Shown piece after piece: positions 20,801 to 34,880 of a DNA stretch of 64,000 nt. The stretch comes from Verrucomicrobiota bacterium (GTDB lineage: Bacteria > Verrucomicrobiota > Verrucomicrobiia > Chthoniobacterales > UBA10450), in the NCBI GenBank assembly GCA_041167085.1, contig JBEEGV010000028.1, forward strand, positions 2,463-66,462, read 5' to 3'. The notes beneath the pieces were generated by a model that was not told where the DNA came from, made no database searches, and saw only the letters and a list, made by a program, of their open reading frames with translations. The position numbers were made by a program, and so were the translations under genes. Position 1 is the first letter of the stretch, and each line of letters starts with the position of its first letter.

Positions 20801-21844
20801 CGTGGGCGATCGATCGTTGGCGTAAACGACGTGGCATGCCGAACATCCGCTTGATCGATAATCGCCCGGGTGATCGTTCGATCCCAGAAAACCCAGGAGT
20901 GGATCGTGCAGTCGCGTTTTTTGCAGTCCGAGAAAAACTGGATCTGTGCGATTCAAGGTACCCAGTCCGCGTTCAGACAGGCGCCGCTCCGGCTTTCCAT
21001 TTGGTTCCGAACTGGTCGGTAATCCGAGGGATAGTTGCGGTCGTCCTCCTTTCTCGAAAATGCGCAGGATGTTGCCCGGATTACTCAGGTTGAATCGCGG
21101 CAGAGGTTCAATGAAAGGCAGAATACCGCGCAGGCGTGTGTCTTCGGCGCTAACCGGGGTGTAGCTGATCAACTTGAGTGGCGCACCATCGGCGCCGTAA
21201 GCCTGGCCAAAGCGGTAGTTCTTCTGCGGGTAGGCGCCGTTATTATATAGAGCAGCGCCCCAGAGCATGGCCCCGTGGTTCATCATGCTGTGATCGACGT
21301 TGCGGACGATCTCGCCGTGACATAGGCCGCAGGTATCCTTGGCCACGCGTAAGTCTCCGGGATTCATGAAACGGATGAATTCCGGCGATTCATGATTGAG
21401 CCAGACATTCGAGTTGGGCGGATTAGCCGACGTTTTCCAAAATTCCTTATTTCGCGGCAGAATATGGGCTTGCTCCTTCGTTAGGCCGCGTCCGGGGTTG
21501 CCCCCGTGACAATCGATGCAGCCGAGCACGACATGTTCGGCCTTGTGCATGGGCTCAACGCCTTGATGGCACTGCAGGCAGCCCGCACTTTTTGCGTTCG
21601 CTTCGGCCTGGGTTTGATCGATCCAATTACGCGGCGGGAGCGAGCCGTGGCTGATGGAAGTCTGGACGGGGACCGAGGTCGGTGGGCCGTAGCCATCTTC
21701 GGAAGCTCCAAATCCCAAGCTCCAAATCCCAAAGAAACACGAAACTCCAATGACCAAACTAAAACGCCAACCCGCGAAAACGCGTTTTGGAACTTGGGGA
21801 CTGGGATTTCCTTGGTGCCTGGATTTTGGTGGTTGGGGTTTCAC
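17816..21844 (-). CDS. decahaem c-type cytochrome fused to a C-terminal LVIVD-repeat beta-propeller
   Basis: Ten CxxCH motifs: CLQCH, CIDCH, CGLCH, CSACH, CMNCH, CADCH, CVDCH, CQICH, CFGCH, CTDCH. LVIVD-like blades: GLVIINVA, GLFVVNVSDP, GLKVLDITEP, GLAIVDIENP, GLRVLQLISP. N-terminal signal-like segment FSLVIGVSCFFGIWSLGFGAS. The GTG start abuts the upstream stop. Confidence 0.9.
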   Translation of the reverse strand: MKPQPPKSRHQGNPSPQVPKRVFAGWRFSLVIGVSCFFGIWSLGFGASEDGYGPPTSVPVQTSISHGSLPPRNWIDQTQAEANAKSAGCLQCHQGVEPMHKAEHVVLGCIDCHGGNPGRGLTKEQAHILPRNKEFWKTSANPPNSNVWLNHESPEFIRFMNPGDLRVAKDTCGLCHGEIVRNVDHSMMNHGAMLWGAALYNNGAYPQKNYRFGQAYGADGAPLKLISYTPVSAEDTRLRGILPFIEPLPRFNLSNPGNILRIFEKGGRPQLSLGLPTSSEPNGKPERRLSERGLGTLNRTDPVFLGLQKTRLHDPLLGFLGSNDHPGDYRSSGCSACHVVYANDRSPTNSGWWSKYGHEGLSFTADQTIPKSERGHPIVHQFTRSIPSSQCMNCHMHQGNLFVNPYLGYTWWDQETDGELMYPAEQHDPTSAELVRSTLENPEAAAARGLWGDKDFLDRVAELNPQLKHTQFADYHGHGWVFRAVFKHDRKGNLLDLDDNRIDDKDPHKFSKAVHLKDVHLAHGMQCADCHFNVDVHGNGMLYGEPRNATTITCVDCHGTIDQRPTLMTSGNAGEFDLLNNSNTPFGPRFTWEGSALYQQSTMSPDVRWEIPQTVDTINPLSPHYNPKSAYAKTLRRDGTTWGGLVPVLGSARDSRAPVGDSPTEDIAASRRDTHASGVRSPESDRRVHLAHDNSAMDCQICHTSWATSCFGCHLPMKANQRVPQNKFEGVTDRNFTTYNPQVVRDDVFMLGIDGTVKKHRMAVIRSSSAVVVSSQNANREWVYSQQQTFSAEGYSGQAFNPHFPHTTSSVGTTKNCTDCHLSQENDNNAWMAQLLGFGTGTVNFFGRYAYVGEGREGVHAVVWTEADEPQAVIGSHLQSIAYPANYQKHLGRGSELEEAYEHSGNDIQDIVLRGEYLYTANGPGGFEAFDVANIDQKGFSERIVTSPVSPLGQRTYVHTPDATSVALPSTLALDPARLHLPENEEQPIDLFYAFVYVSDRQEGLVIINVATLVDGNPDNNFLKKDVVFNPGGALTGATFVAAAGHRLYLTTPRGLFVVNVSDPMHPQIVGQVVDGFLRNPRCVAVQFRYAFVTDDDGLKVLDITEPDHPVPLKSAGVRLNRAGRLYVARTYAYVANGPEGLAIVDIENPEAPRLDQMFNADGAMNDTRAVQVGSVSASQFALVADGKNGLRVLQLISPDTVRGAQGFSPRPNPKLIATYHTKGEAICVSRGLERDRVVDETGGQTVVFGRRGARPFHLDEMDRFYRRSTFSDAKDLDVRRRPELYRVEDVTLSGGVLTTKRGALVTPLSLPSPTPSPVLEGSARATPRVESKTAPTAKPRR
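21701..21841. repeat. palindromic CCAAA/TTTGG element (same family as 6652-6900) lying inside the 5' end of the cytochrome CDS
   Basis: ggaagctccaaatcccaagctccaaatcccaaag... and ...ttttggaacttggggactgggatttccttggtgcctggattttggtgg. It shares ggaagctccaa, ttggaacttgg and gggatttc(y)ttgg with the 6.7-kb copy. Confidence 0.75.
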
Positions 21845-23914
21845 TTAGTAAGTGAGCGTCACCGTCACGATCCCGCTATAAAGAAAATCATCGACATGCG
21901 CGGGCGGTGGCTGGGGATATCCATGAACCGGCACGGTGTTTGCCCGATAAATATCCTTGTAGCCCTGCCGCGGAATGAGAAACCCGGCCCCGGCTGTGAT
22001 GATAATGTTTTCGGTGAGCAACGGCCGCCATTCGAATCCCGCGCTGAAATCGAGCGCGAAATCGTTGCTCGCGTGATTAGTGAAAAGGACGAGTGCCGTC
22101 GGCTCGGTCGTGACGGTCCGGATGTAATTGACGTTGATGAAACTCTTCAGTTTCGGTGTCACGTCTGCATCCAGCCCGTAACCGAAGAGCAGCGTGCCCG
22201 GGTTGACGAAATTGGCCTGGCCTTCCGTCTTGCTCGTTCGAAAGTCGACCACCAAACTGTCGCGCTGCTTAAAATTGACCGCCGTGCCGGCAAGATTGAA
22301 GCCCTGATGCGAGTAATAGCTGAATGGCCCGCCGATAAAAAATGGCCGATCCAGCACGGTATCGAAACCGGTCGCATGCGAATCGGTCGGATTGGAGTCT
22401 CCGCTCGCGTAAAACACCGATAGCTTGTGGCGCAGCCAATTCTTGTCGACCGAGACTTCGAGTGCGGCCATTTGTCCGTTGATGTCAACGCGCTGCCCGG
22501 CGATGCCGTTCAGACTGTCCTCACCCAGGACCTGATAAAAGGCATGATCGATGTTGAGCCAGCCGATATGTCCATCACCGGCCCAGCCCAGGTAATAAGC
22601 CTGGACATAATGATCGGCCACTGTGCCGATCGGCTCCGGCCGCGTGATGAAACCGTTCTTGTCGTAATGCCGGCTGTTATTATCGAAGTCGCCGACAAAA
22701 CTTAGTTCGCCGGTATAACCTTTCCAGATCAGATCCTGTCGAAAAACATTCGCCGCGTAAACCTGCTGGTCGCGTCGGCTGAATTCGTTCAGATCCGAAT
22801 ACGTGTCCTTCTCCAGCATATCGAACGCGGCGACATTGTATTGCCACCGGTTGTTGTCGTAGTTGCCGAAAATCCGCACGCCCAGATTCGTGTCGTTGAA
22901 AATGAATCCGCGAAAATCGCTGACGAACGGTTGAATACCGGCGCGCGATGAAACGAAATCGTAATTGTTCGACAGATCTCGCACGTGAATTTCGGCAAAG
23001 GCTTCCTGTAACGAGACGAATTCTTTTTCCCGCGTTGTCCCTTGTTGCGGGTTGGGATTGACGACATTCCTTTCCTCCACATCGATGTAGTTGTGGTTGT
23101 AAACCCCAAGTAATCGCACCGCCCATTCCACCGGTTTGAACGCGGTCTCGCCTTTGAAAAGATCGATACCGATGGAGAAATCGTTCGACCAAAAATCCTG
23201 TTCGCTCCGTCCGAAAAATTCCGAGCTGTTCGGTCGCTCCGAGCTGACGCCGCTTGGAGTGGGGAGGCGCCGGACTTCAAACTGGAAAAAATTCTCCGCG
23301 GTCAGATTGAGGAAAATGTCCTGGCCGTAAATCGGTGCGTCGCCTTTGAGTTCACTCTGCAGGTACGGATGCCAGAGTTTTAAATCGGATTGGTAAGGGG
23401 TCTCGGTTGAAGGATCGGCGTATCGTTTCCAGCGCCCGAAACCGATGAACCAACGATTGGGAACTGGTTGGGAAGAGGGCAGGAGACCTTCACCGTTTTC
23501 CGACTCAGGATAGGTCTCGTACTCGAGTTTTCTGCGGCGCGGTACTGTTTGGCGAACGCCTTTGCGCGGCAGTGCCAGCGAACGCGGCAACGCTTCTTCA
23601 CCATAATCCGGAAGTTGTGGCAGAATCGGCGGGAACAATTCCGGCGGTGGCGCTTCCTCTTCGATGTCGCGCGTAGAAGCGCCGGGATCCGGATTAAACT
23701 CGGCCGGCGGCAAGGGCGGTTGTGCGACATCGTTTTGATTGGCCTCGGTCACGACGGTGACCTGTGCGACCGAGACATTCTGCGGTCTGGCAGCCGCGCG
23801 CGAAATCTCGACTGTTTGTCCGCGCACGCACGTTGCGCTTCCCACGAGCAGGAGTGCCGTCGTGAGCATTCGACGCAAACTCGCGCCAGCGGGCGAGCGA
23901 GCAAACCAGCGCAT
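21845..23914 (-). CDS. large outer-membrane beta-barrel protein (porin-like), function unknown
   Basis: Signal-like MRWFARSPAGASLRRMLTTALLLVGSATC. Pro/Glu-rich linker. Long Y/F/N/D/G-rich region with alternating hydrophobicity. C-terminus ...SGIVTVTLTY (terminal aromatic). The ORF is open to 23953. Confidence 0.7.
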   Translation of the reverse strand: MRWFARSPAGASLRRMLTTALLLVGSATCVRGQTVEISRAAARPQNVSVAQVTVVTEANQNDVAQPPLPPAEFNPDPGASTRDIEEEAPPPELFPPILPQLPDYGEEALPRSLALPRKGVRQTVPRRRKLEYETYPESENGEGLLPSSQPVPNRWFIGFGRWKRYADPSTETPYQSDLKLWHPYLQSELKGDAPIYGQDIFLNLTAENFFQFEVRRLPTPSGVSSERPNSSEFFGRSEQDFWSNDFSIGIDLFKGETAFKPVEWAVRLLGVYNHNYIDVEERNVVNPNPQQGTTREKEFVSLQEAFAEIHVRDLSNNYDFVSSRAGIQPFVSDFRGFIFNDTNLGVRIFGNYDNNRWQYNVAAFDMLEKDTYSDLNEFSRRDQQVYAANVFRQDLIWKGYTGELSFVGDFDNNSRHYDKNGFITRPEPIGTVADHYVQAYYLGWAGDGHIGWLNIDHAFYQVLGEDSLNGIAGQRVDINGQMAALEVSVDKNWLRHKLSVFYASGDSNPTDSHATGFDTVLDRPFFIGGPFSYYSHQGFNLAGTAVNFKQRDSLVVDFRTSKTEGQANFVNPGTLLFGYGLDADVTPKLKSFINVNYIRTVTTEPTALVLFTNHASNDFALDFSAGFEWRPLLTENIIITAGAGFLIPRQGYKDIYRANTVPVHGYPQPPPAHVDDFLYSGIVTVTLTY

Positions 23915-24046
23915 GGGAGGGCGAGGATGCCGGAAAAGGACGGTTATTGGCAAGCTTCCCTGTAGAAAGAGGGCAGCCGGTGGCTACCCCGCCAGCGATC
24001 GACCCTGGTTCCGCGAGTCACAGGTGGATCGAGTTCTCCGCAGCTC

Positions 24047-24120
24047 GATGCTAATAATGGCGGCGAAGCCGCTAAAATTTACCAACGCGCTCGGAGATCG
24101 CGTTCCACCTTGAAGGGACA
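24047..24120 (+). repeat. conserved ~70-nt non-coding element (copy A), upstream of the GlcG-like gene
   Basis: gatgctaataatggcggcgaagccgctaaaatttaccaacgcgctcggagatcgcgttccacctt aligns with 55499-55566. A 1-nt indel breaks any common reading frame. Confidence 0.8.
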
Positions 24121-24182
24121 TGCGCCCTGGCCACAGGCCCGGTTGCTACAGAACTCAAGAACTGATAAGAGACATTCCCGGC

Positions 24183-25838
24183 ATGAAGCTTCGCGCAACG
24201 CTGTTTCCTCTCGCCTTCTACGCGGTCGTTTCCTCCGCGCACGCCCAGCTTACCGTCACGGACGTTCAGAATATAATCAATCACGCGGTGACACGTGCGG
24301 TCAAGGTTTCGCCAAACAGCGTGATCGCAGTAACCGATCGCGAAGGGTATGTGCTCGGAGTTTGGGTTGTTCGCGGTGGCTCGGCAACGGCGGCCGAGAT
24401 TGCCACAGCCGTCAGCAAGGCCGGGACGTCTGCGTTCTTGAGTAGCAATCAGAACGCGTTCACCTCGCGCACGGCCGGTTTCATTATCCAGCAGCATTTT
24501 CCACCGGGTGTTAACAACACCGCAACCGGTCCGCTGGTCGGTGTCGGACTTTCCAATCTTTTTATCTCGGATGTGAATCGGTTTAAGAAGACCGATCTGA
24601 TTCCCTGCCCGCCGGGAAGTACATCGCCTGGTGTATTTGGATCGCCCATTGCCTTTACGTCGCTGGACGGTTCTCCCGGCGGAGTTCCCCTTTATAAGAA
24701 TGGCGTCCTGGTGGGAGGGGTTGGCGTGACGGGCGATGGCACCCCGCAACCGGCCATTCCGTTTGTTCCATCAGCGACCTTACCTCCGCTGCCCGCCTGC
24801 ACGCTGGCTTCTATTCCACTCGTGCCCATAGCGCGCGACGAGAATCCCTTCATTTATATAAGCGGCTACGACAAGGACGAAGATGTCGCGCTCGCCGGTC
24901 AGAAGGGATTCGCGCCTTCGGCCGGCATCACGGCCAACAATGTCTTCATCAACGGCATTCGACTGGCCTACGTGGCCTCAACCACCAAGAACGCAAAGAA
25001 CATTGCTTTGCAGGGAAATGCTGACCCGGGATTTCCTATTGTCGGTGCGCCGCCGCCATTTCCCTACGTGGTTGCGACATTCGGTGGCGTCACGGGCCAG
25101 ATTCGGCAACCGATCATGGGCGACCCGTTAGTCGCGTCGATCAACGGACAGCCGCGTCTCAATGCGACAGAAGTAGCAAGCATCATTGATTTCGCGGCTC
25201 AGCGGGTGAAAATCACGCGCGCCGGGATTCGCCTACCGATTGGAACACAGATGCAGGTTTTCATCACGGTCGTGAACAATCCGGACATGGACAACGCGGC
25301 TCCGACCGTCCTTGGGACATTTCGGACCGGCGAAGCTACTCTGTTTAGCTGGGACGTAGCCGTGCAAAAGGCGCGGACTACGCTTTTTTACACGCGGCAC
25401 GATTTTCTGGGGTTCGGCTTGAATGTCGCGATGTCGACCCGGGCGGTTGGTTTTCTGGCCCAACGTTTTTATCCACCCGGCATCGACGGGAACCCTCCCG
25501 GACCATTCTTCACCGACCAGGATAAGTTATCCGGCTTTGCCGGCACGGAGCCTAACGTCACTTTCACCGGAATGGCCGGGACCACGCCGATGCGCAATGG
25601 CATCATTCCCGATCTGCCTAACGGCATTACGATTTTTCCCGGCGGCTTTCCACTCTATCGCAACGGCGCGTTGATCGGTGCAATAGGGGTCAGCGGTGAC
25701 GGCGTCGACCAGGACGACATCGTCGGCGCTTCCGGCACGCATGATTTTCTCGCACCCGACGCGATCCGTTCCGACCAGTTCTCCTTCCGCAGCACGCGCC
25801 TTCCCTACGCAAAATTTCCACGCGACCCCGGCCGATAA
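24183..25838 (+). CDS. secreted protein with two GlcG/HbpS-like (DUF336, haem-binding-type) domains
   Basis: Signal peptide MKLRATLFPLAFYAVVSSAHA. The DUF336 signature occurs twice: GGVPLYKNGVLVGGVGVTGDG and GGFPLYRNGALIGAIGVSGDGVDQDD. Confidence 0.7.
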   Translation: MKLRATLFPLAFYAVVSSAHAQLTVTDVQNIINHAVTRAVKVSPNSVIAVTDREGYVLGVWVVRGGSATAAEIATAVSKAGTSAFLSSNQNAFTSRTAGFIIQQHFPPGVNNTATGPLVGVGLSNLFISDVNRFKKTDLIPCPPGSTSPGVFGSPIAFTSLDGSPGGVPLYKNGVLVGGVGVTGDGTPQPAIPFVPSATLPPLPACTLASIPLVPIARDENPFIYISGYDKDEDVALAGQKGFAPSAGITANNVFINGIRLAYVASTTKNAKNIALQGNADPGFPIVGAPPPFPYVVATFGGVTGQIRQPIMGDPLVASINGQPRLNATEVASIIDFAAQRVKITRAGIRLPIGTQMQVFITVVNNPDMDNAAPTVLGTFRTGEATLFSWDVAVQKARTTLFYTRHDFLGFGLNVAMSTRAVGFLAQRFYPPGIDGNPPGPFFTDQDKLSGFAGTEPNVTFTGMAGTTPMRNGIIPDLPNGITIFPGGFPLYRNGALIGAIGVSGDGVDQDDIVGASGTHDFLAPDAIRSDQFSFRSTRLPYAKFPRDPGR

Positions 25839-25897
25839 GATCAGCCAGTCGACATAATGGCTTGTCAGCCAAGGTATAACCTGATACGACTGAGCCC

Positions 25898-28800
25898 TTG
25901 TTGCGCGCTGCCTTGGTCGTAGTGCTCTCGACCGGAAACCTGATTTTCCTGATCTCTCCCGCACAACCTGCGGATGGCCCGGGGGCAGTGCTTCTTACCA
26001 AAGAAAACATTGTTGATGTGAAGGCCCAAAAGGCCGCGTGGCTTTCGGCGACCGTCGGCCAGACGCTTACCGTCCATGATGGGATCCGCACCGGCGAAGA
26101 TAGCCGCGCAACCGTGCGGCTGAGTGATTTGAGCGTTCTTCGAATAGACGAGCTGACCGAGACCGAAATCCTGCCACCGCAGGAAACGAACGCCACGCCG
26201 ACGCTGAATCTCAAACAAGGTTCCGCTTACTTTTTCAGTCGTGAGAAGTCACGTGAGCTTCAAATCAAAACTCCGGCAGCAAATGGCGCCATTCGGGGGA
26301 CGGAGTTCGTGGCGACCGTCGCGTCAAATGGCAATACGACCGTGACCATGCTCGATGGCGAGCTGGAGCTTTCAAATGCGCACGGTTCCGTCGTCGTCCG
26401 AAGCGGTGAGCAGGCAAACGCGGAGCCTGGTGGCAGGCCGACGAAGACGGCTGTTATCGAAGCAATCAATTCCGTCCAATGGTGCCTTTATTATCCCGGC
26501 GTTCTGGATCTGAATGACCTCGCCTTTTCCACAGGGGAAAAACAGGCATTGGAGCAGTCGCTCTCCGCTTATCGCGCAGGCGATCTGCTCGTCGCGCTGA
26601 AAGCATATTCGCATGGTCGGGCTTCAGGTTCGAACGCAGACAAGATTTATCATGCGGGTTTGTTTCTTGTCGTCGGCCAGGTCGCGAAAGCGGAACGTTT
26701 GTTGCGCGAAGTGAAACAGGATAGTCCGGGCCGCGAAGCTCTCGCGACATTGATTGCAGCTGTAACATTGAAGGCCCATGAAAGTCGCGCCGGGCCGAGC
26801 ACTGCCAGCGGCTGGATCGCAGAATCTTACTATCGCCAATCGAAAGCGGATCTGGCCGGCGCGCTAGATGCGGCGCAGCGGGCAACTCAAATCGATCCTT
26901 CATTTGGATTCGCGTGGACGCGACTGGCCGAATTACAATTTAGTTTCGGCCGTGTGCCTCAGTCGATCCAGGCGCTCGAGAAAGGGTTCGAGCTGTCACC
27001 TCGAAATGCTGCTGCCCACTCGCTTCGCGGTTTCCTGGCGAGCGCCGAAAACAAAATTAACGACGCGAAAGAAGCTTTTGAAAAGGCGATGGAGATCGAT
27101 GGCGCGCTGGGCAATGCCTGGCTCGGTCGCGGGTTGTGTTTTATCCGGCAAGGCAAAGACGAACTCGGCCGGCTTGATCTCCAAACGGCGGCGGTGCTTG
27201 AACCCAACCGCTCCATGTTCCACAGCTATCTCGGAAAGGCCTTCAGCAATGTCGGCAACGAGCAAAAGGCACGGCTCGAGTTGGACCGCGCCAAAGAATT
27301 GGATCCGGGAGATCCAACGCCCTGGATTTATTCCGCGCTCGAAAACAAACAGGACAATCGGATCAACGAAGCGGTGCGCGATTTGGAAAAATCGCTCGCA
27401 TTAAACGACAACCGTCGCGTTTATCGCTCGCAATTTCTTCTCGACCAGGATCGCGCAGTCCGCAGCGCAAATCTGGCTGCCATTTATCAGGATGATGGGA
27501 TGGACGAGGTCAGCGTCCGTGAAGCGACACGAGGCGTGGACTATGACTATGCCAGCGCTTCCTCGCACTTGTTCCTCGCCAATAGCTACAATGCTTTGCG
27601 CGATCCGACCCGGATCAATCTGCGATACGAAACGCCCTGGTTTAACGAACTCCTCCTGGCCAATTTGCTCTCGCCGGTCGGCGGCGGCCCGTTGTCTCAG
27701 TACGTATCCGAGGAGGAATATTCGAAACTGTTTGAAGCCAATCGCTTCGGGATCACGTCCACCTCCAGCTACTTCACTACCGGCGAAATTCGTGAGACTG
27801 CATCGCAGTACGGCATTTTTGGAAATGTCAGCTATTCGTTCGATACGGATTTTCAGTACAACAACGGCCTTCGACCGAATAACGAAATCACCCGTTCGGA
27901 GTCCTACGGTCAGGCGAAGGTGCAGCTGTCGCTTCAGGATACCGTATTTGTGCAGACGAAATATCAGGACACGCGCGAAGGCGATCTCCTCCAATATTAC
28001 AATCAGGACAATGCCGCGCCAGGGGCGCATTTCCGCGAGCTGCAACAGCCCGCGATAATCCTGGCTGGTTATCACCACGAATGGGCGCCGGGGATTCATA
28101 CCCTTCTCCTGGTCGGGCGCCTGGCGGACGAAGTGTTCTATTCCAATCTCAATACCGGAGCGGACGTGAATGGGTTCTCCCAATCCGGGCTGCTTCCGAA
28201 TATCAGTCGATCGCTGGTTTTCGTGCGCGATCCGAGTGGAAAAGTGGCGGACATTTTTCCCCTGCCGGTGGACGTTCGCTACCACAACACATTCGCCACA
28301 TACACAGGCGAACTAAATCAGATTTGGGAGGCGGAAAGTAACAGACTCATTGTCGGCGCCCGATTTCAGTCGGGCGAGTTTCACACGAGTGATCATTTTG
28401 ACAATGTGCCAGCTCTCGTCGCCCCCTTCTTCATGAACCCACCTGCCGCGCAGGATTTTGAAACGTCCCTGGAGCGGGAGAGCTTTTATGCTTATGACAC
28501 GTGGCGGCCGTTCCGAACTTTATCGATCACCGCGGCAGTCAGCTACGATCGATTGAGCTATCCGACCAATCATGGAAATCCGCCGATTGTGGATGCGGAA
28601 AGTTCACGAGCTCGTGTTTCGCCAAAAGTCGGTTTGATCTGGAATCCAATGGGCAATCTCGTCTTTCGCGGAGCCTACGCGCGGGCCCTGGCAGGAGTGA
28701 GCTTTGACGAAAGTGTTCAGCTTGAGCCAACTGAGGTCGCTGGTTTCAATCAGGTTTTTCGAACGATAATTTCAGAATCTCTGATCGGTTCCGTTGCAGC

Positions 28801-29485
28801 TCCCACCTACGAGAGCGGAGGCCTGCTGATTGAAAATAAGTTTAGTTCGGGGACCTATGCTGGTGTTCAGGCAACAATTCTTCGGTCAGACGTAGACCGC
28901 CGGGCCGGTATTTTCGAGGGCTCAGTTGATTCTTTGCACAACTTCAACTCGCCAATTGTCGCATCGTCGACCCCGCAGAGTTTCCGGTATGAGGAAGATA
29001 ATTTATTGCTCACGTTGAATCAGTTGGTCGGCGACGAATGGTCGTTCGGCGCGCGATACCAGGTTTCGTTTTCCGATCTGGAAACGATTTTTGGCGGTGT
29101 TCCGCAATCTGTTGTCGTCGCCTCTCTCCCTCCAGGTCCCAATCAACTGTTTTTCCATTCGCCAAGTTTCGCCGACAGCCGCCTGAAAGCGACGCTGCAC
29201 CAGGCTCAGATCTTTGCGCTCTACAACCATCCCTCAGGTTTTTTCGGCCGAGTGGAAGAATATTGGGCGCGGCAGAGCAATGTGGGTTACGCCCCTGACA
29301 TTCCGGGCGATGAAATCTTGCAACTAAACGCTTACATCGGCTACCGCTTCCGGCGCAATTACGGCGACATCACCCTAGGATTTCTGAATCTGACGGATCA
29401 AAATTACAAACTCAATCCGCTGAACTATTACAGCGAGCTTCCCCGAGATCGAACTCTCCAGGTTCGCGTCCGTCTTAATTTCTGA
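25898..29485 (+). CDS. FecR domain - TPR repeats - TonB-dependent-receptor-like outer-membrane barrel fusion protein
   Basis: FecR-like N-terminus (TVHDGIRTGEDSRATVRLSDLSVLRI ... IRGTEFVATV). About 6 TPRs (e.g. AWLGRGLCFIRQGKDELGRLDLQTAAVLEPN). C-terminal barrel motifs VSPKVGLIWNPMGNLVFRGAYARA and GFLNLTDQNYKLNP, with terminal LQVRVRLNF. TTG start. Confidence 0.75.
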   Translation: MLRAALVVVLSTGNLIFLISPAQPADGPGAVLLTKENIVDVKAQKAAWLSATVGQTLTVHDGIRTGEDSRATVRLSDLSVLRIDELTETEILPPQETNATPTLNLKQGSAYFFSREKSRELQIKTPAANGAIRGTEFVATVASNGNTTVTMLDGELELSNAHGSVVVRSGEQANAEPGGRPTKTAVIEAINSVQWCLYYPGVLDLNDLAFSTGEKQALEQSLSAYRAGDLLVALKAYSHGRASGSNADKIYHAGLFLVVGQVAKAERLLREVKQDSPGREALATLIAAVTLKAHESRAGPSTASGWIAESYYRQSKADLAGALDAAQRATQIDPSFGFAWTRLAELQFSFGRVPQSIQALEKGFELSPRNAAAHSLRGFLASAENKINDAKEAFEKAMEIDGALGNAWLGRGLCFIRQGKDELGRLDLQTAAVLEPNRSMFHSYLGKAFSNVGNEQKARLELDRAKELDPGDPTPWIYSALENKQDNRINEAVRDLEKSLALNDNRRVYRSQFLLDQDRAVRSANLAAIYQDDGMDEVSVREATRGVDYDYASASSHLFLANSYNALRDPTRINLRYETPWFNELLLANLLSPVGGGPLSQYVSEEEYSKLFEANRFGITSTSSYFTTGEIRETASQYGIFGNVSYSFDTDFQYNNGLRPNNEITRSESYGQAKVQLSLQDTVFVQTKYQDTREGDLLQYYNQDNAAPGAHFRELQQPAIILAGYHHEWAPGIHTLLLVGRLADEVFYSNLNTGADVNGFSQSGLLPNISRSLVFVRDPSGKVADIFPLPVDVRYHNTFATYTGELNQIWEAESNRLIVGARFQSGEFHTSDHFDNVPALVAPFFMNPPAAQDFETSLERESFYAYDTWRPFRTLSITAAVSYDRLSYPTNHGNPPIVDAESSRARVSPKVGLIWNPMGNLVFRGAYARALAGVSFDESVQLEPTEVAGFNQVFRTIISESLIGSVAAPTYESGGLLIENKFSSGTYAGVQATILRSDVDRRAGIFEGSVDSLHNFNSPIVASSTPQSFRYEEDNLLLTLNQLVGDEWSFGARYQVSFSDLETIFGGVPQSVVVASLPPGPNQLFFHSPSFADSRLKATLHQAQIFALYNHPSGFFGRVEEYWARQSNVGYAPDIPGDEILQLNAYIGYRFRRNYGDITLGFLNLTDQNYKLNPLNYYSELPRDRTLQVRVRLNF

Positions 29486-31491
29486 TGCGGATTCCGAAAA
29501 TCAGGCACCTCAGCCGCGGATTAGCGATTATATTTGGCAGTCTTCTCGCGGTAACGATAGGGCTGGCGTGCCTGCGTTTTTCTTTTGCCGAACCTTTGGC
29601 CCGGCGCAGCTATGATCTGCCTTTCATCGTGCGGTCAACTCTTGACACCCACGAAGCCGTTCTTGTCTACCTGGACGACGAATCGGCGAAGCAACTACAG
29701 CAGCCGCTCGATAATCTTTGGAATCGGGCGTTGCACGTCCCTCTTTTGGATCGACTGGCCCGGGACAATGCGCGGTTGGTTTTTTACGACATCGTCTTTG
29801 ATCAGCCAGCAGCGGAACCCAGCGTCGATGCAGCTTTTGCGGAGTCCATTCGACGCCACGGGAAAGTGATACTCGGCGCGGCGCTGGATAAAATCGAACG
29901 GATGGGCGGGGTGAATAAAAAAAGTGTAGCCGCCCCGATCAATCCCCTTCGCAAAGCTGCTGCCGGATGGGGAATTCTGGCATTTGATCCGGTCGATGCA
30001 GACTATGGAGTCCGCGAGATATTCCTCGGGACGAGCCTCGTTCCGACCGCGACGTGGAAAGCAGCCCAGGTGCTGGGAGCAAAGGTTACGCGCGAGTCTC
30101 GCGAGAACCCGATCAAGCGATGGGTCAATTATTATGGTCCGCGAAATACTTTCTCGTCGGTGAATTTTGCACAGGCACTCGATCCGCAGGGTGTGCCGCC
30201 CGGGTACTTCAAAGACAAAATCGTGTTAGTGGGTGGCCGATCGGCGGTCGGCTCCTTATCGGTTGGAAGGGACGAGTTCGCGACGCCTTATTCGACCTCG
30301 AATCACCAGTTTTCCCCCGGCTTGGAGATTCACGCGACCATTCTGCTCAACCTGCTGCGCGGGGAATGGCTTACCCGAATGTCTGAGAATTGGGAGACAA
30401 CTCTTATTGTCGTGATAGGGCTCGTGGCAGGCGGCCTCTCGGTTTTGCGTCCGCCGCTAGCCGCGGTCCTGGCGCTGCTAGGATCGATCGTCCTGGCGAG
30501 CTTTGCTTGTTGGTTGGTTTGGAATCAACGGATTTGGTTCGATTGGCTGGTTCCAGCCGGCATTCAGATGCCGTTAGGCCTGGTTTGGTCCGTTGGTTCG
30601 CAATACCTGCTGGAATCGCGCCGCCGGAAAGAATTGCGCAAAGCGTTCGGGTTTTATTTGTCGCCGCAGATGGCCGACAAGATCGCCAACTCGGACTTTG
30701 ATCTAACACCTGGGGGTAAGGTGGTTGATGCAACCATCATCTTTACCGACCTCGAGAATTTCACGACGCTGTCAGAAGACCTCGATCCGTCCGAAGTCTC
30801 ACAAATTCTGATCGCATATTTCGAACAGACGACGCACTGCATTCTCGAAAACAAGGGCACCATCATCAAATATGTCGGGGACGCAGTCATGGCCGGTTGG
30901 GGCGCTCCGATCGATGAGCCTGAGCACGCCATCCGCGCAGCCGAGGCCGCGTGCGATCTGCGCTGTCTCACGGAACTCGAAGTTCGCGGAAAGAAACTGC
31001 GCACCCGGATAGGGGTTAATAGTGGCAAAGTACTCGCCGGAAATCTGGGTTCATCCTTCCGCTTCGACTACACGATGATTGGTGACACGACGAACTTTGC
31101 GTCACGCCTTGAGTCATTGAACAAATACCTCAATACCCAGGTCTTGATTTCCGAGGCCGTCAGAGAACAGCTTGGGGATAAATTCATCACCCGGCGCCTC
31201 GGCGAATTTCGCGTAGCCGGCAAAACGCGCAGTGTGATTATCCACGAACTGCTCTGCCGCTGCGGCGACGCTCAATCCGGAGAAGAGAGCTGGATCAGGG
31301 TCTTTGAGGAAGGACTGGGCGGATTCCGGGCGGGCGAATTTTCGAAGGCGTGCGACCTGATGAATCAAACCCGTCACCTGCGCGGAGGGTCTGATGGCCC
31401 GGCCGAGTTCTACTTAAGAAAGATTGCCGCAATGAAGGGGAACGGAAATCCGGCAGACTGGACGGGGATCGTTGAGTTGACCGAAAAATAG
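29485..31491 (+). CDS. CHASE2 sensor domain - transmembrane - class III adenylate/guanylate cyclase
   Basis: N-terminal TM, an extracytoplasmic ~300-aa domain and 3 TMs. Cyclase motifs IIFTDLENFTT, KYVGDAVMAGWGAP, RIGVNSGKVLAGNLG, YTMIGDTTNFASRLE. The start overlaps the upstream stop (TGATG). Confidence 0.9.
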   Translation: MRIPKIRHLSRGLAIIFGSLLAVTIGLACLRFSFAEPLARRSYDLPFIVRSTLDTHEAVLVYLDDESAKQLQQPLDNLWNRALHVPLLDRLARDNARLVFYDIVFDQPAAEPSVDAAFAESIRRHGKVILGAALDKIERMGGVNKKSVAAPINPLRKAAAGWGILAFDPVDADYGVREIFLGTSLVPTATWKAAQVLGAKVTRESRENPIKRWVNYYGPRNTFSSVNFAQALDPQGVPPGYFKDKIVLVGGRSAVGSLSVGRDEFATPYSTSNHQFSPGLEIHATILLNLLRGEWLTRMSENWETTLIVVIGLVAGGLSVLRPPLAAVLALLGSIVLASFACWLVWNQRIWFDWLVPAGIQMPLGLVWSVGSQYLLESRRRKELRKAFGFYLSPQMADKIANSDFDLTPGGKVVDATIIFTDLENFTTLSEDLDPSEVSQILIAYFEQTTHCILENKGTIIKYVGDAVMAGWGAPIDEPEHAIRAAEAACDLRCLTELEVRGKKLRTRIGVNSGKVLAGNLGSSFRFDYTMIGDTTNFASRLESLNKYLNTQVLISEAVREQLGDKFITRRLGEFRVAGKTRSVIIHELLCRCGDAQSGEESWIRVFEEGLGGFRAGEFSKACDLMNQTRHLRGGSDGPAEFYLRKIAAMKGNGNPADWTGIVELTEK

Positions 31492-31808: not shown

Positions 31809-34800
31809 GTGAAAATAAAATATATAGCCTGCAGTGTTTTCATGGTTCTGATGGGCCTGGTTTCAGCGGGCTTTGCCGCCTCGGTAAGTATCAGTCCGAA
31901 CGCAGTCAATACCGACTATGTCGGCAAAGTATCCCTAAGCATCGCTGGCCTGACTGTCGGTAAGACGGTGTTGGTGGAGCGATTCGTTGATTTCAATGGC
32001 AACGGCGCGGTGGATGCGAGCCAGGACACGCTCACTTTCAGTTTCAAAGTAACAGACGGCCAGGTGCCGCTCATCGGCGGTGTGCGTAACGCGAATGTTC
32101 CCGGCGACGATGACGGCGTAGCCGACGGTGCCATCCGGATTGATTTGCCGTTCCCAAATGTCGATGGCGTATTTACCAGTGCAGAGGCCAAGTTCATTTT
32201 CCGCGTCTCGGACCCGCAGAATAGCTTCACCCCGGTCACCGCGGTTTTCCAGGTGACGCAGAGTGCCAAGCCGCAGGGCGTCTCTGGTCAAATCACGGCG
32301 GCGTCCGGTGGGACGCCGTTGTCAGGAGCGTTCGTTGTGGTCGCCCCGCCTAACGGATCGCCATTCGCCGCGACGGTCACAGACGTTAATGGCAACTATT
32401 CCTTCTTCACTCCACCAGGCTCCTTCGTCGTGTTCGTCGTGCAAAACGGTTTTGTTTCCGATCAAAACGCTGGTGCTGTGACCGTGGTAGCAAACCAGTT
32501 TGCGACCAGAAACCTGGCGCTGACGAGCGCCGGCTTCACCCTGTCCGGCAAGGTCAGCGATAGCTCCAGCACCGCTGGCATAGCTGGCGTCTTCGTCACG
32601 GCCAACTCCTCGGCCAACAATCTTTTCTCCGGCGGATTCGCGGACGCTAACGGCAACTACAGTTTAAAGTTAACGCCGGGTCAGTGGCAAGTTAGGCCAG
32701 ACAAGGCCGGGCCGGCCGCGGTCGGCTATCTGACCTCCTCAAAGCAGACGACTAATGCGACAGCGAGCGGATCGGCCACGCTTAATTTTGCTCTGTCGAA
32801 GGCGACCGCATTGATTTACGGCACGGTGAACGACGGCGCTAATCCAGTGAATGGACTGCAAATCAAAACCAATGACCAAGGCAATCTTCACAACACCCAG
32901 GGAGTTACATTCGCGCCGAACGGAAAATATGTCCTGGGGGTGGTAGCCGGAACCTGGGGGGTTGCCCCGGACAGCGACAGCCTTAACGAGAGAGGTTATA
33001 GCGGGGGGACCGGGTCCGACGTTACATTGAACGCAGGGGAGACGTCACAGGTTGATTTCGTCGTCCAAGCTATCACGGCCCACTTGCGCGGACAGATCAT
33101 AGACGACGTGGGCGCACCTATCCCCAACATGCAAATGTCAGTGCAGGACTCCTCGAGTCCCAGCGGGACGGGATCCCTTACTCCTCAGTCCGATAGTAAT
33201 GGAAACTTCGACGCCGGTGTGCGGGGTGGCACTTGGGAGATTTCGTTGAACTGCAGCAAGGCGCAAGGCCAGGGTTATATCAACGTTTTTGGAGACGACT
33301 TCAACGTCACCGACGGCGTGGATCAAAACAATATCGTTCTCACATTTCCGCGCTTCACCGCGACTATTAGCGGCTCGGTCAAAGACAATCTTGGCCATCC
33401 TATTCCCGGTGTGCAAATGGATGCCGACCAGCCGATCAACGGCAGCATGGATTATGGTCCTGGCTGCGTTTCCACCGACAGCAATGGCAATTACACGCTC
33501 AAAGTGCTCGGCGGCAGCTGGACCGTGTCGGCGAGCAGTGACGATCTAAACGCGCGCGGCTTCAACAGTGTCACCGGTCAGGATGTCAACATCTCCAACG
33601 GCACCGGCACGGCCAATTTTGTCGCGACCCAAATGCCTCCGATAATTACCGGACCATTGATGGCCACGGCAACCGTCGGCCAGCTCTTCGTCTATCAAGT
33701 GACCGCTACCGGTCTACCCAATAGCTACGGCGCCACACCCATTCCGCCAAACCTCAGCTTCAACGACGTTCAAGGAATCATCGGAGGAGTACCAACAACT
33801 CCAGGCACAACTCAAGTGCAGCTGAGCGCCACAAATTCGATGGGCACCGGCTCAGCGACCTTGACGATCACGGTTCAGCCTGCGCCGTCTTCGGGTCCGG
33901 TTATCATCAGCGGCACCAGTATTACTGCCCGAACGGGGCAGCCTTTCAGTTTTCAGGTATTAACAAAAAACGCGAGCTCATCGGCGCGATTGGATGCGAG
34001 TGGCCTTCCTCCTGGATTGAGCGCCGATCCCGCGAGCGGAATTATCTCGGGGACGCCGACCTCCGATGGTGGCTTTGGAGTCGCATTGACAGTTACGGAC
34101 GGGGCCGCGACAACACAGGGCATTCTCCAAATGACTTGCGTCTCCGATCCTGCCTTCCCGGTTATCACCAGCCCCGGCGCGGCCACTCTCACAGTAGGGA
34201 AGTTTTTCTCGTACACGATAACCGCGCCCGGGGATTCAGATCCATCTGATCCGACAACCTTCAGTATCATCGGAGCGCTCCCTGCAGGTCTAAGCTTTAA
34301 TCCTCAGACGGCCACCATTTCGGGTACCCCTACTGCCACTGCCAGCCAATTTACCAACGACGCCATACGCCAAACCAGCGTCGAGAGTGGAGAGGAAGAC
34401 GGACCGCGCTCAGAGGGCGCGGTGCCTTTACTCAACAATACGCCCCCGGTTAGTATTAACCAGCTCGTCACTCACAACAAGCAGGGCACGGGAACCAAAC
34501 CGCTCAATTATTTTCCCGCGACAGCCACTCCGGCAATCGCCCTTACGTCGTCGTCAACCAGTGTCAATGAAGGAGACAGTTTAACATTTATATTTTCGGC
34601 TTCGATAGTTGACCCGGTCAATGCGAAGACGGTTCACTATCAAATGAGTGGTAAAGCGAAGTCTGGGACAGATTACACGCTCAGTGGAAGTTCCGGACAA
34701 ATCGACATTCCCGCCGGTGCCGCCTCAGCCACCGTTACGCTCACAGCACTGACGGACATGGTGGCGAAGGAGAAGAACGAGACTGTAACAATGACTCTGA

Positions 34801-34880
34801 CCAAAGTGGCCAAAAAAGGAGCAAGTTACTCGCTCTCCTCTGCGAAGAAGGCCACCGTGACCATCGTTAACGTCCCGTAA
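31809..34880 (+). CDS. giant secreted surface protein: CarboxypepD_reg-like repeats, He_PIG/cadherin-like Ig domains, C-terminal Calx-beta
   Basis: Signal peptide. Five or so units of the type G.V.D..G.P..GA.V......TDSNGNY.L....G.W.V. Units of the type GLPPGLSADPASGIISGTPT. Calx-beta-like SGTDYTLSGSSGQIDIPAGAASATVTLTAL. GTG start. Confidence 0.8.
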   Translation: MKIKYIACSVFMVLMGLVSAGFAASVSISPNAVNTDYVGKVSLSIAGLTVGKTVLVERFVDFNGNGAVDASQDTLTFSFKVTDGQVPLIGGVRNANVPGDDDGVADGAIRIDLPFPNVDGVFTSAEAKFIFRVSDPQNSFTPVTAVFQVTQSAKPQGVSGQITAASGGTPLSGAFVVVAPPNGSPFAATVTDVNGNYSFFTPPGSFVVFVVQNGFVSDQNAGAVTVVANQFATRNLALTSAGFTLSGKVSDSSSTAGIAGVFVTANSSANNLFSGGFADANGNYSLKLTPGQWQVRPDKAGPAAVGYLTSSKQTTNATASGSATLNFALSKATALIYGTVNDGANPVNGLQIKTNDQGNLHNTQGVTFAPNGKYVLGVVAGTWGVAPDSDSLNERGYSGGTGSDVTLNAGETSQVDFVVQAITAHLRGQIIDDVGAPIPNMQMSVQDSSSPSGTGSLTPQSDSNGNFDAGVRGGTWEISLNCSKAQGQGYINVFGDDFNVTDGVDQNNIVLTFPRFTATISGSVKDNLGHPIPGVQMDADQPINGSMDYGPGCVSTDSNGNYTLKVLGGSWTVSASSDDLNARGFNSVTGQDVNISNGTGTANFVATQMPPIITGPLMATATVGQLFVYQVTATGLPNSYGATPIPPNLSFNDVQGIIGGVPTTPGTTQVQLSATNSMGTGSATLTITVQPAPSSGPVIISGTSITARTGQPFSFQVLTKNASSSARLDASGLPPGLSADPASGIISGTPTSDGGFGVALTVTDGAATTQGILQMTCVSDPAFPVITSPGAATLTVGKFFSYTITAPGDSDPSDPTTFSIIGALPAGLSFNPQTATISGTPTATASQFTNDAIRQTSVESGEEDGPRSEGAVPLLNNTPPVSINQLVTHNKQGTGTKPLNYFPATATPAIALTSSSTSVNEGDSLTFIFSASIVDPVNAKTVHYQMSGKAKSGTDYTLSGSSGQIDIPAGAASATVTLTALTDMVAKEKNETVTMTLTKVAKKGASYSLSSAKKATVTIVNVP

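Follow-up and report, generated by a model that had tools for sequence, protein, structure and literature searches.

An NsrA/CyaK-type gene pair of Verrucomicrobiota, probably encoding an envelope-spanning sensor with a CHASE2 adenylate cyclase

The two overlapping genes and their products

The window analyzed here is a stretch of 64,000 nt from a bacterium of the Verrucomicrobiota, order Chthoniobacterales (assembly GCA_041167085.1, contig JBEEGV010000028.1), and the subject of this work is a pair of overlapping open reading frames (ORFs) within it, ORF1 and ORF2 (Table 1). ORF1 encodes an exported protein that combines a FecR domain, tetratricopeptide repeats (TPRs) and a C-terminal beta-barrel, and ORF2 encodes a receptor in which an extracytoplasmic CHASE2 domain is joined to a class III cyclase. 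The pair is a phylogenetically distant system of the type known as NsrA-CyaK in Sinorhizobium meliloti, not a new rewiring or a new principle of signaling, and the two proteins are probably the two components of a sensor that spans the envelope. A first-pass annotation of the window, made from the letters alone, had placed both reading frames and the TGATG overlap, and the sequence agrees with it on all of these positions. It had also described ORF1 as an exported protein in which a FecR domain is followed by about six TPRs and by a barrel with no recognized plug, and Pfam, hydropathy, AlphaFold2 and Foldseek lead to the same architecture.

Table 1. Positions of ORF1, ORF2, their domains and an adjoining gene in the window (aa, amino acids; AF2, AlphaFold2).
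Feature	Window position	Strand	Evidence or remark
ORF1, NsrA-like outer-membrane protein, 1195 aa	25898..29485	+	Signal peptide, FecR, TPR, conserved linker, beta-barrel
Predicted signal peptide, ORF1 aa 1-27	25898..25978	+	Hydropathy peak aa 1-23; hydrophobic core, SPA/QP region
FecR-type beta-sandwich, ORF1 aa 28-186, predicted periplasmic	25979..26455	+	Pfam PF04773 and AF2 strands
Helical repeats, ORF1 aa 187-546	26456..27535	+	About six TPR hairpins, aa 303-505; TPR Pfam families, AF2, PDB TPR matches
Linker from TPRs to barrel, ORF1 aa 547-623	27536..27766	+	Highly conserved, poorly modeled; candidate plug substitute or partner-binding element
C-terminal TonB-dependent-receptor-type beta-barrel, ~22 strands, ORF1 aa 624-1195	27767..29482	+	Pfam, AF2, Foldseek
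TGATG stop/start overlap of ORF1 and ORF2	29483..29487	+	ORF1 TGA overlaps ORF2 ATG
ORF2, CHASE2 receptor class III adenylate cyclase, 668 aa	29485..31491	+	
CHASE2 extracytoplasmic domain, ORF2 aa 27-317	29563..30435	+	Pfam PF05226, E 8.5e-36
Class III cyclase catalytic domain (Guanylate_cyc), ORF2 aa 415-582	30727..31230	+	Pfam PF00211, E 4.4e-24
Possible accessory gene, 1023-aa CarboxypepD_reg/He_PIG repeat protein	31809..34880	+	Pfam; weak link, close relatives only

The start codon of ORF1 is TTG, and an in-frame stop codon at 25877-25879, 21 nt upstream of the TTG, excludes an earlier start and a longer N-terminus. The cleavage site of the signal peptide is a putative one. In Pfam, the FecR domain (PF04773) is matched at residues 63-156 with an E value of 1.9e-14, several TPR families match residues ~300-480, and TonB_dep_Rec_b-barrel (PF00593) gives a match at residues 696-932 (E 1.4e-10) that is partial but above threshold. 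The protein ends in ...VRVRLNF, and the terminal Phe is near-invariant across the family. NCBIfam holds no model for ORF1 or ORF2 and returns weak TPR matches, BcsC among them, and a sub-threshold match to Lsa33.

A model of full-length ORF1 was calculated with AlphaFold2 from a 135-sequence alignment, with a mean predicted local distance difference test score (pLDDT) of 72 and a predicted template modeling score (pTM) of 0.61. The model consists of a beta-sandwich at residues 30-185, with pLDDT values mostly in the 80s, helical repeats at residues 190-545 (pLDDT 80-95) that include six TPR hairpins at residues 303-505, a helical stretch of low confidence at residues 547-623 (pLDDT 24-35) and ~22 long strands at residues 624-1193. 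In a Foldseek comparison with the PDB, the middle part of the model matches TPR proteins, and the C-terminal half matches FhuA, PqqU, FecA, OprC, FoxA, FptA and others, with E values of ~1e-9 over ~600-650 columns and target TM-scores of 0.43-0.5. The C-terminal region is therefore modeled as a 22-strand barrel of the TonB-dependent-transporter type. The first-pass annotation had named this point beforehand as one on which its proposal could fail, and the region does model as a membrane barrel, with ~22 strands in AlphaFold2 and TonB-dependent transporters as Foldseek matches.

ORF1 nevertheless departs from the canonical TonB-dependent transporter: the plug is missing, and the stretch from the TPRs to the first strand (547-623) is just ~77 residues long. 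A plug domain (PF07715) is not detected in ORF1 by Pfam at E<=0.01 (no profile-profile comparison with plug domains was made), STN is not among its Pfam matches, and a TonB box, which is a short and degenerate motif, is not recognizable; the N-terminus is taken up by FecR. The linker of residues 547-623 has the highest mean conservation of any ORF1 region in the family alignment A3. The most conserved segments of the family are residues ~490-623, which comprise the end of the TPRs and the linker (window 27368-27766), and residues ~921-960 (window 28658-28777), and the stretches of lowest model confidence (residues 547-648 and 933-966, pLDDT 24-36) cover most of these segments. The conserved segments of low confidence may be a substitute for the plug, may need a partner in order to fold or may bind one.

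The structure of the barrel bears on one alternative, in which ORF1 is a gated TonB-receptor-like channel and CHASE2 binds the imported ligand, with the FecR and TPR parts gating or anchoring the channel and no relay between the two proteins. A barrel of the TonB-dependent-transporter type, as found by Pfam and Foldseek, speaks for such a channel, and the CHASE2 synteny described below is equally compatible with it and with a relay. However, plug and STN domains are not among the Pfam matches of ORF1, a TonB box is not recognizable in it, and TonB/ExbBD genes are not seen beside the pair in the examined loci. Additionally, a conserved periplasmic FecR and TPR portion of ~520 residues would be very large for something that serves as a gate and no more, and the candidate signal of S. 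meliloti NsrA is a whole external protein (PMC7529298), which would be hard to import. Transport followed by sensing is considered unlikely on these grounds.

In ORF2, hydropathy places a first transmembrane (TM) segment at residues ~9-35 and a cluster of TM-like segments at residues 303-347, which may extend to residue ~375, and these flank CHASE2; the last TM helix, which is needed to place the cyclase in the cytoplasm, is weakly hydrophobic. The catalytic set is complete, with D422 and D466 for the metal, K462 and T530 for the adenine and N537 and R541 for the transition state, and all of these residues are conserved among the syntenic cyclases. Pfam, hydropathy and this residue check agree with the earlier description of ORF2 as a CHASE2 protein with TM segments and a class III cyclase with intact motifs, and every motif quoted in that description is present. 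The closest PDB relatives of the ORF2 cyclase are adenylate cyclases (OaPAC, bPAC and CyaB); in the alignment with OaPAC and related adenylate cyclases, KYVGD of ORF2 lies opposite KFIGD, and DYT lies opposite DYT. In class III cyclases, a Lys together with a Thr or an Asp at the substrate positions specifies ATP, and Lys/Thr is the class IIIb pattern. Consequently, K462 and T530 predict cyclic AMP (cAMP) as the product of ORF2, presumably made by a homodimer; the annotation had left cAMP and cyclic GMP side by side, and the second of these is dropped.

Homology to NsrA and conservation of the pair

A tblastn search of plasmids with ORF1 gives matches on pSymB of many Sinorhizobium strains. 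The S. meliloti match is a 1190-aa "FecR domain-containing protein" with FecR at residues 66-160, TPRs and the C-terminus ...VKVRF; its signal for an outer-membrane beta-barrel is weak, and the barrel stays below the Pfam threshold for TonB_dep_Rec_b-barrel. The TGA of its gene overlaps the ATG of the next gene (TGATG), which encodes CHASE2 and a cyclase and which is labeled "cyaK: adenylate cyclase CyaK" in the pSymB records of sister strains. The gene nsrA is taken to be located directly upstream of cyaK, and the annotation of cyaK on pSymB corroborates this gene order and with it the identification of the pSymB protein as NsrA. NsrA is an outer-membrane beta-barrel (co)receptor whose barrel spans residues 600-1200 (Sorroche et al. 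2020, PMC7529298). This position of the barrel and the size of 1190 residues agree with the identification.

BLASTP aligns ORF1 with NsrA at 25% identity over residues 23-503 (E 6e-22), and in profile-profile comparisons with hhalign the N-terminal halves match with a probability of 99.7% (E 4e-26). For the barrel halves, a probability of 62.6% is obtained with shallow alignments. With a deeper C-terminal profile, built from 50%-identity cluster representatives at 38-51% identity, the C-terminal halves match with a probability of 94.9% (E 4.5e-8) over 500 collinear columns that reach the C-terminus. Judged from BLASTP and from the profile-profile comparison of both halves, ORF1 is therefore a remote, collinear, full-length homologue of NsrA. 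The FecR domain is the best-conserved region in the alignment between the family of ORF1 and that of NsrA.

A comparison of the two systems reveals a common size of the outer-membrane protein (~1190-1200 aa) and a common order of signal peptide, FecR, TPR and a ~600-aa barrel that ends in Phe. The gene order and the TGATG overlap onto the gene for a CHASE2 class III cyclase are also shared. In addition to S. meliloti nsrA-cyaK, the TGATG junction recurs in three close relatives of the window pair (loci L005, L045 and L072) and on a plasmid of Methylocystis iwaonis (NZ_CP143315.1, locus L085 3228-8764), where the gene for a 1221-aa FecR protein ending in ...VRF overlaps the start of a CHASE2 cyclase gene. 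In contrast to NsrA-CyaK, the window pair belongs to the Verrucomicrobiota (Chthoniobacterales) and to a free-living soil context, its barrel passes the Pfam threshold that the NsrA barrel fails, and the outer-membrane family of the Verrucomicrobiota is also paired with CHASE2 receptors whose output is a Ser/Thr kinase or a hybrid histidine kinase.

Two side observations were made at the pSymB loci. In S. meliloti R14 (CP130053.1, locus L001 9495-11437), the CHASE2 and cyclase parts of cyaK lie in different frames, which reflects either a frameshift or pseudogene or a sequencing error; strain R11 carries an intact annotated cyaK (locus L084 4878-6827). Additionally, the gene at L001 5244-5789 on the minus strand, divergent from the FecR-TPR-barrel gene, codes for a DUF5706 protein that contains a PycTM (Pycsar effector) domain and is a possible cyclic-nucleotide-responsive membrane effector beside the cyclase locus.

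The family of ORF1 is large. In an exhaustive HMMER search with ORF1 against 1.84 billion cluster representatives (50% identity), 1,941 clusters match at E<=1e-30. Almost all of the best 150 clusters are 1,100-1,250 aa long and match ORF1 from end to end at 39-53% identity, apart from about ten shorter fragments. A metagenome-assembled genome (MAG) of the Verrucomicrobiota encodes the closest relative, which is 99% identical, and many other relatives are labeled Chthoniobacterales. Genomic contexts were collected by a pattern scan of one genome per GTDB species; the alignment of Verrucomicrobia sequences with NsrA (A2) has no stretch conserved enough for such a scan, and A3 was used in its place. 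At least 590 ORF1 relatives are confirmed among the 600 pattern matches listed in the GTDB species-representative genomes. The best 79 loci, a set that is biased towards Verrucomicrobiota by this procedure, are nearly all from several orders of that phylum, and one Pontiellaceae MAG is also included.

CHASE2 partners in the 79 loci were sought by tblastn and with a CHASE2 hidden Markov model built from the hits, which recognizes CyaK with an E value of 3e-53, and 69 of the loci have enough flanking sequence for synteny to be judged. A CHASE2 gene is present within 6 kb of the ORF1 homologue in 53 of these informative loci, and in ~40 of the 69 it is the very next downstream gene on the same strand. 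The estimated gaps between the two genes are mostly <=150 nt, and the genes overlap in the closest relatives. The same ORF1/ORF2-type pair is carried by three metagenomic relatives (L002-L004) at 66-89% identity, and outside the Verrucomicrobiota a FecR-barrel/CHASE2 pair is found in Alphaproteobacteria too. The annotation had stated that its proposal would fail if FecR-TPR proteins and CHASE2 cyclases did not occur together beyond this genome; the association is seen in the 53 loci, in the three metagenomic relatives and on the Methylocystis plasmid. A genome is estimated to contain a handful of CHASE2 genes; with CHASE2 as the next gene in ~40 of 69 loci, the pairing is far above chance.

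This synteny also bears on the possibility that ORF1 and ORF2 are co-transcribed and act independently of one another. In favor of this possibility, a CHASE2 gene is missing within 6 kb in 16 of the 69 informative loci. However, CHASE2 is the next gene in ~40 loci from several orders of the Verrucomicrobiota, the pair recurs in the Alphaproteobacteria, and the stop and start codons overlap in TGATG. A genetic dependence in S. meliloti is also described (PMC7529298), and independent action of the two proteins is considered highly improbable. Among the neighbors in the loci without CHASE2 are Ig-like surface proteins, a CHASE-like histidine kinase and a TPR Ser/Thr kinase, and these 16 loci indicate that the family of the outer-membrane protein is broader than its partnership with CHASE2.

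The CHASE2 partner has a cyclase as its output domain in most loci, a Ser/Thr kinase in four (L053, L054, L058 and L059) and a PAS-HisKA-HATPase-REC hybrid histidine kinase in two (L028 and L056). The outer-membrane partner is thus kept while the cytoplasmic output is swapped, which indicates that the periplasmic CHASE2 domain, and not the cyclase, is the coupled element. This pattern in the sequences points to a functional link that runs through CHASE2.

The genes upstream of the ORF1 homologues were also recorded in 50 loci (alignment A4). Sigma70_r2 is present in 3 of the 50 and a TPR Ser/Thr kinase in another count of 3 of the 50, which suggests that some members of the family may feed other outputs.

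A proposed sensor and its relation to known systems

According to PMC7529298, PMC13001267 and PMC10463352, all of which cite Garnerone et al. 2018 (J Bacteriol 200:e00019-18), NsrA is needed in S. meliloti for signaling through CyaK (signal 1) and through CyaD1/D2 (signal 1'), and CyaK and CyaD1/D2 are inner-membrane CHASE2 adenylate cyclases that transduce signals 1 and 1'. The candidate signal in S. meliloti is the basic protein uL2, which acts from outside (PMC7529298). Because the window pair comes from a different phylum and from a free-living soil context, a plant or uL2 cue is not to be assumed for it.

In light of this homology, ORF1 and ORF2 are probably an NsrA/CyaK-type two-component sensor that spans the envelope. 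ORF1 would be exported, its C-terminal barrel of ~22 strands would insert into the outer membrane, and its N-terminal FecR and TPR modules would hang in the periplasm. ORF2 would reside in the inner membrane with CHASE2 facing the periplasm and with the class III domain making cAMP as a homodimer in the cytoplasm. A cue that reaches the cell surface or enters the barrel may alter the state of ORF1, and the periplasmic part of ORF1 (FecR, TPR and linker) may hand this change to CHASE2, which would then switch the cyclase. The domain architecture, the barrel fold in the model, the remote homology to NsrA, the tight operonic coupling and the conserved CHASE2 synteny carry this reading.

Several points weigh against it. 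A direct contact of the FecR/TPR part with CHASE2 is a presumed step of the scheme, as are the direction in which ORF1 would regulate the cyclase and the nature of the cue. The genetic evidence that the cyclase depends on the outer-membrane protein for its activation by a signal comes from S. meliloti only and would apply to ORF1 by analogy. ORF1 and NsrA are only 25% identical in the N-terminal half and ~17% identical in the barrel, and the transfer of function spans phyla. Residues 547-623 of ORF1, which are the likeliest to matter for the closing of a plug-less 22-strand barrel, are modeled at very low confidence, and the 16 informative loci with no CHASE2 gene within 6 kb also belong here.

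In signaling of the Fec/Pup type, the components are a TonB-dependent transducer (FecA), an inner-membrane anti-sigma protein (FecR) and an extracytoplasmic function (ECF) sigma factor (FecI). The window pair resembles this system in that a periplasmic domain of the FecR family and a 22-strand barrel of the TonB-receptor type carry information across the envelope. In contrast, the FecR domain of the window is fused to the barrel protein and is not anchored in the inner membrane; the plug, the STN domain, an anti-sigma domain and a nearby ECF sigma factor are not found for the pair by Pfam among the called genes; and a second messenger takes the place of the sigma factor as the output.

In a variant of Fec-type signaling, an ECF sigma factor whose gene lies elsewhere would be under the control of the FecR domain of ORF1, and the position of the cyclase gene next to ORF1 would be secondary. 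The Sigma70_r2 domains in 3 of the 50 upstream neighbors speak for this variant. However, no sigma gene is found among the genes called between ~9.8 and 50 kb of the window, and ORF1 lacks the cytoplasmic anti-sigma domain and the inner-membrane anchor of FecR. The FecR domain of ORF1 instead comes after a signal peptide, in one polypeptide with an outer-membrane barrel, and control of a sigma factor is considered very unlikely. The search of the called genes covered ECF sigma factors (Sigma70_r2/r4), regulators that bind cyclic nucleotide monophosphates and phosphodiesterases, and none of these is present among them. The relay proposed in the first-pass annotation, in which an outer-membrane FecR-TPR-barrel protein feeds a CHASE2 cyclase without a sigma/anti-sigma pair, remains the best-supported reading, but it is not novel, as the arrangement is the published one of NsrA-CyaK.

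Two further arrangements are comparable. In Campylobacterota, a gene cluster encodes a CHASE2 cyclase, a FecR outer-membrane protein, a TPR protein and a phosphodiesterase (PMC9239204). A CHASE2 cyclase is thus clustered with a FecR outer-membrane protein and TPRs, as in the window; however, FecR and TPR are encoded there by separate genes together with the phosphodiesterase, whereas in the window they form one polypeptide and a phosphodiesterase gene is not found beside the pair. In Burkholderia and P. aeruginosa, a LysM-FecR gene is located immediately upstream of the gene for a CHASE2 histidine kinase in the operon BiofilmReg (PMC5192318). Here too, an exported FecR-domain protein is encoded directly upstream of a CHASE2 receptor, but this partner is small, periplasmic and peptidoglycan-binding and lacks TPRs and a barrel, and the output consists of a histidine kinase and a response regulator.

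CHASE2 was defined in 2003, and a CHASE2 ligand is not reported in the papers searched. The sole functional handle on the domain is the genetics of NsrA-CyaK in one rhizobium, and systems of this type are known but little studied and poorly understood. The new contribution here is modest and consists of the breadth of the family in the Verrucomicrobiota and the output-swapping evidence for CHASE2 as the coupled domain. The abundance of the module in this phylum, together with output swapping, strengthens the view that a FecR-domain partner drives CHASE2 receptors, and the ~40 or more syntenic pairs are a ready set for co-evolution analysis and multimer modeling. For this genome, the gain is one of annotation, namely a predicted envelope sensor that would make cAMP.

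A wider proposal is tentative. FecR-TPR-barrel proteins might serve CHASE2 receptors in general as their input device in the outer membrane, irrespective of the output domain; if so, the CHASE2 "ligand" would be a partner protein and not a small molecule, and residues ~490-623 and ~921-960 of ORF1 would be a non-canonical plug and transducer that links the barrel to the FecR/TPR arm without TonB. The three parts of this proposal jointly are regarded as possible rather than probable.

Genes around the pair

A gene for a 572-aa HbpS-like protein is located at 24120-25838 of the window, 59 nt upstream of ORF1. The HbpS-like/GlcG domain is confined to the C-terminal third of the protein (residues 397-537), and the first ~390 residues contain no recognizable domain. 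Divergent from this gene, a 1342-aa protein with cytochrome c3/c7-like heme motifs and LVIVD repeats is encoded at 17816-21844 on the minus strand; it adjoins a 702-aa protein without a Pfam match, and the two span 17816-23953 on the same strand. Pfam agrees with the annotation on the identity of both the HbpS-like gene and the divergent multiheme/LVIVD gene. The suggestion derived from these genes, that the cue is related to heme, iron or redox, is not supported, because they are not conserved beside the pair in related loci. The HbpS-like protein has no tblastn match in the 79 genome loci, and neither its gene nor the cytochrome genes adjoin the pair in three close relatives from metagenomes, one of which is 89% identical and has housekeeping genes upstream of the pair; the HbpS-like gene is thus absent from 82 related loci.

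Downstream of ORF2, the gene for a large repeat protein (Table 1) is a candidate accessory gene. Large He_PIG/CarboxypepD_reg proteins flank the pair in L002 (1568-8014), L003 (13606-19300) and L004 (4831-8004), and the stop codon of the He_PIG/CarboxypepD_reg gene overlaps the start of the FecR-barrel gene in L002 and L004. He_PIG proteins also flank the pair in L005, L006, L008 and L045. As a fixed third component of the system, however, the He_PIG protein is rejected, since it is conserved only in close Chthoniobacterales and no single upstream family is found over 50 loci.

These neighbors bear on the remaining alternative, in which ORF1 is a scaffold or exporter for nearby secreted repeat proteins (He_PIG, Ig-like or beta-propeller), similar to the TPR-porin exporters BcsC, PgaA and PelB, and the cyclase regulates or monitors this process. 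In the window and its close relatives, genes for He_PIG/CarboxypepD_reg proteins adjoin the pair, proteins with DUF5122 propeller, Ig, Calx-beta or NHL repeats are encoded upstream in roughly a quarter of the loci, and Ig, HYR, DUF11 or InlB-repeat proteins are encoded downstream in some of the loci without CHASE2; the weak NCBIfam match to BcsC, which arises from the TPRs of ORF1, also agrees with export. TPR-porin polysaccharide exporters (BcsC/PgaA/PelB) have a barrel of 16-18 strands and occur in the operon context of a synthase. However, the top 50 Foldseek matches of ORF1 consist of TonB-dependent transporters and TPR proteins and include no barrel of the BcsC/PgaA/AlgE type, the best structural matches being 22-strand transporters, and synthase genes are not seen nearby in the window. 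No neighbor family is conserved across the loci, whereas CHASE2 is, and the FecR domain and the genetics of NsrA would be left unexplained, which makes a role in scaffolding or export quite unlikely. In the distant loci, the secreted repeat proteins beside the pair are of other families (DUF5122 propeller, Ig, Calx-beta, NHL, HYR and DUF11).

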